Sequence record: PZ583743.1
From: a phage
Reading direction: 5' to 3' (one strand)
DNA: 64,000 nt
Shown: positions 44,765-46,404 of the stretch, in pieces
How the letters are laid out: each line of letters starts with the position of its first letter
Numbering within the stretch: position 1 is the stretch's first letter
Position numbers and translations under genes: made by a program
Notes under the pieces: generated by a model
The model's database searches: none
Seen by the model: the letters and a program-made list of their open reading frames with translations, nothing else
What the model was told of the DNA's origin: nothing

Positions 44765-45544
44765 TTAATTAAAAATATATACTTCATCAGTTCCATTCTT
44801 TTCTTTGGAATGATATATGTTAAAGACGTATTTTTTATTAAGATGCTTAACATTATATTTTTTAGACCATTCTTTAAGAAGAGTGTTTTCCTTTCCGTGA
44901 TGCTCTAAAACATTCGACAGTCCAAATTTTATTCCTCTGTCATTTAAAGAATCTAAAAGATTTAAAAGGTCTTTTTCTTCTTCTTCTGACCAAAATTTAT
45001 TATAATCAGCAACTGTTATAAGATATGGAGGGTCCACATATACAAAATCGCCGTCTAGAATTTTGACATCTTTAAAATGCAATGAACTAAAGATTATTTT
45101 ATCACAATTTTGTTTAAAGTGATTAAAGCGTTTTTCACTATTTTTGTTTATAGTTCTTTTTCCAAACGGAGTAGTAAAATTTCCTTTATCGTTTATACGA
45201 ATCATATTACTAAACCCGTGAAAATGAAGAACATAAAGTAAAAGAGGATCTCTAGTTTTATTATAATCTTCACGTAATTTCAAAAACTCTTCTTTTGATG
45301 TTTTTGATAGTTTGTATTGCTTTATTACTTTTAAAACGTCATCCCATGATACATTAATAAGACGCTTATACATTTCAATAATTGGTTCTTGAATATCATT
45401 GGCCAATACAGGACCATTGACGTTCAAAGACACTGATAAACCTCCACAAAATAAATCCACGAATCTGTCATATTTTGGAAAGTGAGGCTTAAGTTCAGGT
45501 AATAATGATTGTTTATTACCTGTATACGCGATAGCTCCTAGCAT
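44765..45544 (-). CDS. dam: DNA adenine methyltransferase Dam
   Basis: 259 aa, same length as T4 Dam; DPPY catalytic motif and FCGG SAM-binding motif. Confidence 0.9.
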
Positions 45545-46104
45545 TATATTCTCTCATTTATTGCAGCAAAAAACGAATTATATAATTCTTCATCATATGT
45601 ATTTGATAGTAATACTAACACGTTTTGTGATTTAGCATATTCATTAAACCTTGCTTGGATGGTTGGATTATCAGTAAATGATTCTCTTTTTGTCCATTTA
45701 TTACGTGGATAATATCCGCATGGCAAAAAATCTAATATCATCAATGACACAGGGTTTTCAGTTTTTGTGTATTCTTTTAATTTCTCTTTATCTTCTAAAT
45801 ATATTCCAACCGAATCAATAGCTGTACCTCCACCAACTTGGTGTTTAATTTCAATTATATGCTTTTTACCGTTGCGAGAAATAACAATATCAAATCTTCT
45901 AGTACGCTTCTTAGTTATAAAATTAGAACAAAACAAATTATTTGATTTTTCAGTATCATCGGTTAAAACCATTTTTTCTTGATAACTAACTGAACAATCA
46001 GTGAAATATTCTTTTACTTTATTAAGTATGAAATTTTCAACTACGGCAGATATTTTATATGAATCTCCGTTTAAAGCCATTTCATGCACAATTTTATTAA
46101 TCAT
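45544..46104 (-). CDS. Hypothetical protein with PD-(D/E)xK-like nuclease motif, translationally coupled to dam
   Basis: 186 aa; [21 protein letters not shown] gives D-13-ExK; stop TAA shares a base with dam ATG; own early promoter and GAGGA SD. Confidence 0.5.
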
Positions 46105-46129
46105 TATATCATCCTCAGCAATTTATTTT

Positions 46130-46159
46130 ATAATACCATAACAAGCTGAGAAAGTAAAC
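46130..46159 (-). promoter_or_regulatory. T4-type early promoter for the nuclease-like ORF and dam
   Basis: -35 GTTTAC at 46154..46159, 18 nt, -10 TATTAT. Confidence 0.55.
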
Positions 46160-46177
46160 AAATTTATGAAATTTGTG

Positions 46178-46184
46178 ATAAATA
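46178..46184 (+). promoter_or_regulatory. Late-promoter-like ATAAATA box for plus-strand small ORF
   Basis: gATAAATAtt 19 nt upstream of ATG 46204; 7/8 match to TATAAATA. Confidence 0.3.
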
Positions 46185-46203
46185 TTAATTTAAAGGAGGA
46201 CAT

Positions 46204-46404
46204 ATGGCACAAAAATTAATGGCACTTGTTAATGCCATCAAAGGTAATAAGAAACGTATAGCTTTTACTATTTCTGCTATGGTAGGAATTTTACTCTGGA
46301 ACTTTATTTTATCACCAATTGCAATTGCGCATGGTGTTAATATTCCAGTAGTTACTCTTGATACATTCGTAGATCTAGCATTTGCTTTAGTTGGGTTAAT
46401 TTAA
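46204..46404 (+). CDS. Small membrane protein (66 aa), plus strand, convergent with gene 61
   Basis: AGGAGG SD 4 nt upstream of ATG; two hydrophobic segments; ATAAATA box 19 nt upstream; stop overlaps gene 61 stop. Confidence 0.5.
   Translation: MAQKLMALVNAIKGNKKRIAFTISAMVGILLWNFILSPIAIAHGVNIPVVTLDTFVDLAFALVGLI

Follow-up and report, generated by a model that had tools for sequence, protein, structure and literature searches.

The stretch of DNA analysed here (sequence record PZ583743.1, 64,000 nucleotides, of the Tequatrovirus type; hereafter, the window) contains a phage dam gene and, directly upstream of it, an open reading frame (ORF) of 186 codons, ORF186, whose product is predicted to be a restriction-endonuclease-like protein of the PD-(D/E)XK superfamily. 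We give about an even chance to the interpretation that ORF186 and dam constitute a mobile two-gene accessory cassette resembling a restriction-modification (R-M) system, in which ORF186 would cut the sites protected by Dam and of which the Dam of phage T4 would be an orphaned part. This interpretation is favored because the nuclease gene never occurs without the methylase gene, the methylase gene often occurs alone, the two genes are translationally coupled and move together, and the nuclease gene is lost where the methylase gene is kept. From the sequence we infer, for ORF186, a nuclease activity, a specificity for GATC sites, the blocking of cleavage by methylation and a biological target.

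The stop codon TAA of ORF186 overlaps the ATG of dam (TAATG; base 45544 is common to both genes), exactly as described in an earlier note on this DNA, which had been made from the letters alone and had placed the 186-codon ORF correctly. The coupling to dam that the note claimed extends beyond this overlap, for ORF186 was never seen apart from a T4-type dam. In all ORF186 homologs examined, the next gene downstream encodes a T4-type D12 methylase, with the stop and start codons overlapping or abutting. These pairs occupy three genome sites: between genes 61 and 56 (the window, Tequatrovirus, and the metagenomic relatives L006 and L007-9), between denB and ndd (Klebsiella Jiaodavirus), and directly upstream of rIIA (the metagenomic T4-like contig L013); the pair is also present in the contigs L010-L012, which are too short to be placed. 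The identities of the two proteins co-vary (38-63% for ORF186 versus 54-76% for the methylase; r = 0.90 over 45 non-independent pairs). In being adjacent to a methyltransferase gene and co-inherited with it, ORF186 resembles the nuclease genes of R-M systems. The window dam matches the T2 Dam of record M22342 at 100% identity, its product shows 98.8% identity to T4 Dam, and two further phages, Yersinia phage vB_YepM_ZN18 and Escherichia phage a51, are 100% identical to the window over positions 45400-46500.

A solitary related dam is found beside nrdC in RB49, KP15 and RB16, with unrelated small ORFs upstream; these ORFs were considered as diverged ORF186 homologs and rejected (hhalign probability <1%). 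In plasmid and bacterial loci, the proteins nearest to T-even Dam (about 35-43% identity) were methylase domains of AlwI- and FokI-type IIS systems, and neither solitary Dam nor parts of DpnII-type systems. A comparison of the ORF186 profile with 575 ORFs flanking these relatives (plasmid loci and 80 bacterial genome loci) gave no match (best E 0.19).

An AlphaFold2 model of ORF186, built with seven homologs, was confident (pLDDT 79, pTM 0.79) and consists of a single domain with the canonical PD-(D/E)XK core of a helix, three strands, a helix and a strand (alpha-beta-beta-beta-alpha-beta), in which D72 lies in the strand 67-77 and E85 and K87 in the strand 80-88. These three residues, on strands 2 and 3 of the core, make up the D...(D/E)-x-K catalytic set of the superfamily and, together with E23, are invariant across 10 ORF186 homologs with identities down to 27%. 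The earlier note had seen a classic D-E-x-K core here and had looked to a structure search and to motif conservation for its support; the fold, the motif and its invariance were all found, and only the spacing has to be corrected, from 13 residues to D-x12-E-x-K. About 20 further residues are likewise invariant among homologs at 27-63% identity, as is a stretch of 12 residues directly after K87. Between ORF186 and homologs at 59-63% identity, the nonsynonymous divergence (dN) is 0.32 and the synonymous divergence (dS) about 1.8-2.3 (dN/dS about 0.15); as the synonymous sites have reached saturation at a dN of about 0.3, ORF186 is under purifying selection.

All of the significant Foldseek matches of the model, in the PDB as well as in BFVD (viral structures), were PD-(D/E)XK nucleases. 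The best structural matches in the PDB were type IIP restriction enzymes, with MunI at a TM of 0.59 and EcoRI also listed, and the modelled fold would thus resemble that of the MunI/EcoRI-like enzymes (PDB 1D02 and 1ERI); the sequence identity to these is only 12%, and in this comparison ORF186 has 12 residues between the catalytic D and E. In BFVD, the sole close match was an uncharacterised homolog of phage MX01, the others being generic nucleases. Searches with the single ORF186 protein and with the family profile detected no sequence-level match to any PDB chain, and a search of NCBIfam with ORF186 also gave none. ORF186 corresponds to PHROG 8706 (function unknown), and its family is small, with 11 representatives among 1.84 billion proteins and every checked context in T4-like phages; a chimeric metagenomic protein, P0008, was left out of the alignments. 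Every family signal in Pfam and PADLOC was to a restriction enzyme, and all were below threshold. DpnII (PF04556) came first in Pfam (E 0.0045; 16.8 bits versus a cut-off of 23); it matched 4 of the 10 family members (best E 8.3e-5), and the match to ORF186 was confined to profile positions 152-235 of 278. BanI of Pfam matched 4 of the 10 members below threshold, and REase_II of PADLOC (a profile of about 290 positions) matched 3 of the 10 (best E 5.3e-6), aligning to the same region of ORF186 as DpnII.

The distribution of the two genes was counted over a collection of phage records, in which about 503 records were identified as of the Tequatrovirus type by a conserved 66-amino-acid ORF (Dam.1, described below). 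A T4-type dam at >=90% identity is present in about 182 of them: in 147 it is accompanied by a contiguous, full-length ORF186, and in about 35 (T4 and some natural isolates) only by the last 28 ORF186 codons, with a common endpoint at 45631. No record has ORF186 without dam, and about 320 have neither. The window dam and most natural Tequatrovirus dam genes are thus not solitary, in contrast to orphan Dam methylases such as that of T4. Since homology of the window to T6 and Kha5h ends at 44724 and restarts at 46193, the cassette can be delimited to the interval between these positions, in place of which T6 has about 40 bp. Both genes are absent from T6, Kha5h and Mosigvirus, in which gene 56 is followed by the 66-amino-acid ORF and gene 61 within about 80 bp. 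The variability of the locus among Tequatrovirus, which the earlier note had raised as a point to check, is therefore real: the window and T2 carry the cassette, and T6 and Kha5h lack it. In the metagenomic relative L006, the cassette is flanked by extra ORFs, one for a 93-amino-acid MazG-like pyrophosphohydrolase (3657-3938) and one of 122 amino acids without a family match (5355-5723); the former was considered as the footprint of an insertion, in the form of a duplicated piece of gene 56, and was rejected as such, because the protein is small, MazG-like and unrelated to gp56.

The T4 locus arose by deletion and retains the 3' end of ORF186. It lacks the 548 bp between two copies of the 8-bp direct repeat TTTGTGAT, including the region of the predicted promoter, and its 309-bp gap between dam and 61 contains the last 28 ORF186 codons and an intact, unannotated 66-amino-acid ORF. 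The T4 RefSeq record has no gene annotated between dam and 61, so that the statement in the earlier note that T4 has no gene there agrees with the annotation and with the absence of a full ORF186, although the remnant and the intact small ORF are present. Four other lesions were found: KarlGJung (Bas37) has a 366-bp deletion between GATGATAT repeats in ORF186, G4500 a -1 frameshift, ESCO58 a +4 insertion, and T2 a -1 frameshift in a T-run by which the last seven residues are replaced; the T4 remnant carries the same frameshift allele as T2. In all five of these phages dam is intact. The KarlGJung deletion joins the ORF186 ribosome-binding site to codon 122, and the resulting 61-amino-acid C-terminal fragment is annotated as a gene (locus 1501-1686).

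Such repeated loss and frameshifting in sequenced phages, and the very small number of homologs, could suggest that ORF186 no longer acts as a nuclease and is either a dead or decaying remnant of an enzyme or a regulator of dam that binds DNA. We consider this improbable, because the catalytic set and about 20 other residues have stayed invariant, the dN/dS ratio is low, and ORF186 is intact in as many as 147 records.

The earlier note had left open whether the locus is an R-M-like or a homing-endonuclease-like insertion. The R-M-like option fits best of the two, because ORF186 is never without a T4-type dam at three genome sites; the idea of an insertion beside a resident dam did not hold, for both genes lie in one 1.47-kb cassette. 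As a free-standing PD-(D/E)XK homing endonuclease, ORF186 would cut the cassette-less allele (the interval between gene 56 and Dam.1, or a flanking gene), and dam would be cargo spread by recombinational repair. The presence/absence polymorphism at a fixed site (cassette in the window and T2, none in T6, Kha5h or Mosigvirus) is that of a homing endonuclease, and like the Seg and Mob homing endonucleases, ORF186 is a small nuclease gene with a patchy distribution between conserved genes. However, Seg and Mob have a GIY-YIG or HNH fold in contrast to the PD-(D/E)XK fold of ORF186, and ORF186 differs from them in that dam always accompanies it, at several places in the genome, so that it lacks the independence from a fixed partner gene that a homing endonuclease has. 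An enzyme tied to a target site would not be expected to keep one partner, translationally coupled in one way, at three unrelated sites and at identities down to 27%; moreover, the model is matched best by structures of type IIP restriction enzymes and not of homing enzymes, and T4 lost ORF186 by deletion yet kept dam. Homing is thus an improbable explanation in our judgment. In fPS-90 and WL-3, a gene for a 216-amino-acid HNH-NUMOD3 homing endonuclease occupies the slot between gene 56 and Dam.1 (locus 480-1130 and 780-1430, respectively), and because this gene replaces the dam cassette there, the interval is a hotspot for nuclease-bearing accessory DNA.

In the R-M-like scheme proposed here, an early promoter would drive a bicistronic ORF186-dam message, and translation of ORF186 would end on the TAA that overlaps the dam ATG, so that the methylase would be made whenever the nuclease is made. 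ORF186 would fold as a small EcoRI/MunI-like type IIP PD-(D/E)XK endonuclease, with E23, D72, E85 and K87 as a metal-dependent active site, and would cut DNA at the sites protected by Dam methylation (GATC); because Dam protects these sites, the phage's own DNA would be immune. DNA without T-even Dam methylation would be attacked, and the most plausible targets would be co-infecting T-even relatives that lack dam, because host Dam is not known to methylate the hydroxymethylcytosine (hmC)-containing DNA of T-even phages. The nuclease gene would decay readily and dam would be kept, T4 Dam being the half orphaned by the 548-bp deletion. As for the promoter, a sigma-70-type site was found upstream of ORF186, where the earlier note had placed an early promoter, and the records of Lutter and JB75 annotate promoter features under the same stretch. 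The promoter scan as a whole showed no enrichment (12 sites versus 12.7 expected from shuffles), and because of this the call rests on the position of the site and its fit to the T4 early consensus, from which we infer its activity.

The frequency of GATC was examined with the observed/expected (O/E) ratios of tetramers under a second-order Markov expectation, ranked among the 256 tetramers. GATC is the most depleted tetramer (rank 1) in the window (64 kb, with dam and ORF186; O/E 0.36, with 77 observed and 214 expected), in T6 (50 kb, with neither gene; O/E 0.33) and in Jiaodavirus Shinkou (30 kb, with both genes; O/E 0.14). It is not depleted in the 30-kb sequences of RB49 (O/E 1.09, rank 199) and KP15 (O/E 1.04, rank 161), each with a solitary dam. 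Long circulation of a GATC-directed nuclease would be expected to leave depletion of this kind, although it may have another cause, as set out below.

Several points weigh against the R-M-like interpretation. In the literature we found no description of ORF186 or of a phage-borne restriction partner of dam, and no biochemical or genetic data on either; recent papers on T-even defence do not mention ORF186. The enterobacterial hosts are Dam-positive, and therefore a DpnII-type enzyme would be without a host target. If a PD-(D/E)XK enzyme of the size of ORF186 cannot cut glucosyl-hmC DNA, the phage would not need Dam to protect itself. Hattman's laboratory reportedly described viable dam-negative mutants of T2, which would argue against lethal self-restriction, unless the C-terminally frameshifted ORF186 of laboratory T2 is inactive. 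The repeated decay of ORF186 indicates that the gene is dispensable. When the ORF186 family consensus was searched against Pfam, the DpnII match was lost and only a weak match to PDDEXK_11 was obtained; because of this, and of the scores below threshold, we treat membership of the DpnII family as not established, and because the similarity is sub-threshold and partial, specificity for GATC rests on the linkage to dam and on the depletion of GATC. This depletion is in turn confounded, because the depleted lineages (Tequatrovirus and Jiaodavirus) are also those which we take to be hmC-containing Tevenvirinae, and T6, without the cassette, is as depleted as the window.

Two other possibilities concern the DNA on which ORF186 would act. 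It might be a nuclease against cytosine-containing DNA (host, plasmid or dC-phage), either dependent on Dam methylation (DpnI-like) or acting at sites methylated by T-even and not by host Dam, which would take part in host breakdown beside EndoII and EndoIV while the phage DNA is shielded by hmC/glucose and/or Dam. In Jiaodavirus, a denB-like gene for endonuclease IV directly precedes the cassette, expression early in infection would be in keeping with host shut-off, and chlorella viruses encode GATC R-M systems that are directed at host DNA. However, ORF186 (186 amino acids, a single domain) has no methyl-reading domain, protection of the phage by hmC alone would leave the strict dependence of ORF186 on dam without an explanation, and phage Dam would add little where the GATC sites of the host are methylated already; we give this possibility a low probability. 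ORF186 might also be a MutH-like, Dam-directed nickase that acts on un- or hemimethylated new phage DNA and seeds repair or recombination-dependent replication. The PD-(D/E)XK fold and the partnership with a GATC methylase are also true of MutH, and early expression would be in line with such a role, which we nevertheless regard as very unlikely. In short, the homing, host-directed or methylation-dependent, MutH-like and relic or regulator explanations each account for fewer observations than the R-M-like one.

A more far-reaching form of the R-M-like interpretation is that T-even Dam serves as the antidote in a weapon of phage against phage: ORF186 would be GATC-directed, would cut hmC DNA and would destroy co-infecting T-even relatives without dam, T4 would be disarmed but immune, and the scar would be the depletion of GATC, roughly threefold to sevenfold, in the genomes of Tevenvirinae. 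Taken together, this set of claims seems to us unlikely.

Among the known systems, the DpnII/MboI family (PF04556) has, like the ORF186-dam pair, a GATC methylase of the Dam class as partner, and the PADLOC type II restriction endonuclease model that matches the same region of ORF186 is of similar length to that of DpnII. However, ORF186 is about 100 residues shorter than DpnII and scores below the gathering threshold, and its gene precedes the methylase gene, whereas in the DpnII and MboI systems the nuclease gene follows it. Virus- or phage-borne R-M is exemplified by R.CviAI/M.CviAI (GATC) of chlorella viruses and EcoP1I of P1, in which, as proposed for ORF186-dam, the virus carries a nuclease together with the protecting methylase; the protein families differ. 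The host DNA that the chlorella virus enzymes degrade is unmethylated, whereas that of the hosts of the ORF186 phages is Dam-methylated. A further difference is that the DNA of T-even phages is hypermodified (hmC).

The type II R-M pair as a system is already known; new are the ORF186 family, the virulent T-even carrier and the implication for T2 and T4 Dam. These are textbook methyltransferases, usually described as solitary and without a clear benefit to the phage. ORF186 was contained, unannotated, in the dam sequence of T2 from 1988 (M22342), and the GenBank record of phage Shinka labels it as a 'putative DpnII restriction endonuclease'. If ORF186 is the cognate nuclease, this would explain the patchy occurrence of dam (T2 and T4 have it, whereas T6 and about two thirds of Tequatrovirus do not), the strong avoidance of GATC in these genomes, and the structure of the dam-61 gap in T4. 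Virulent, hypermodified phages would then join the carriers of R-M modules, probably for competition between phages, and ORF186 would represent a new family of restriction enzymes without Pfam or NCBIfam membership, possibly tolerant of hmC.

Table 1. Features of the dam locus in the window (positions are those of PZ583743.1)
Feature	Position	Strand	Evidence or remark
Gene 56 (dCTPase)	44186-44719	minus	
ORF186-dam accessory cassette, about 1.47 kb	44725..46192		BLAST versus T6 and Kha5h
dam, D12-class N6-adenine DNA methyltransferase (proposed modification component)	44765..45544	minus	Pfam MethyltransfD12, E 6.5e-51
ORF186, restriction-endonuclease-like PD-(D/E)XK protein of 186 amino acids (proposed restriction component)	45544..46104	minus	
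TTTGTGAT, left unit of the 8-bp direct repeat between which T4 has its deletion	45624..45631		alignment and BLAST with T4
Predicted catalytic hairpin of ORF186, codons D72...E85-I-K87	45844..45891	minus	D72 45889-45891; E85 45850-45852; K87 45844-45846
E23 codon of ORF186, helix 1	46036-46038	minus	
Shine-Dalgarno sequence of ORF186, GAGGA	46112-46116	minus	from sequence; phage 107 has a ribosome_binding_site annotation at the corresponding position
Predicted early-type promoter before ORF186-dam, GTTTAC (-35) and TG-extended TATTAT (-10)	46158..46130	minus	consensus scan
TTTGTGAT, right unit of the 8-bp direct repeat	46172..46179		alignment and BLAST with T4
Late-promoter-like box of Dam.1, ATAAATA	46178-46184	plus	read from sequence
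Shine-Dalgarno sequence of Dam.1, AGGAGG	46194-46199	plus	read from sequence
Dam.1, small hydrophobic protein of 66 amino acids, convergent with gene 61	46204..46404	plus	phrog_2024
Terminator-like hairpin downstream of gene 61, 11-bp stem and T-run	46216..46241	minus	terminator scan; fPS-90 has an annotated terminator there
Gene 61 (primase)	46401-47429	minus	

The plus-strand ORF of 66 amino acids next to the cassette (Table 1) is named Dam.1 or RB69ORF029w in RB-phage annotations. Its position, its AGGAGG and ATAAATA sequences and its end on the gene 61 stop codon (TTAA at 46401-46404) are all as the earlier note gave them; the grouping of this membrane ORF with the nuclease-dam locus was not upheld, for it is separately conserved in about 690 records irrespective of dam. 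By tblastn it was found in 693 phage records, including 190 of Mosigvirus at 52-56% identity; it exists in T4, T6, Mosigvirus and metagenomic relatives, is under purifying selection (dN/dS about 0.1-0.2), and can be traced at about 20% identity by synteny and a conserved WN..P..G..P.V pattern. Because it is present with or without the dam cassette, Dam.1 is regarded as a neighbour of the cassette and not as a component. The ATAAATAT box is retained in T6 and Kha5h despite differing upstream DNA, and this box and the orientation of the gene suggest that Dam.1 is expressed late. T4 (NC_000866, 17738-17938, plus strand) has an intact Dam.1 that differs from that of the window in three amino acids and is missing from the RefSeq annotation. 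The terminator-like hairpin of gene 61 falls within the first codons of Dam.1, so that one stretch (46216-46241) serves both strands.

On the other side of gene 56, a different ORF of 66 amino acids (43986-44186, minus strand) follows that gene, where T4 has the homing endonuclease gene segF; since this ORF occupies the segF position, the window phage lacks segF.

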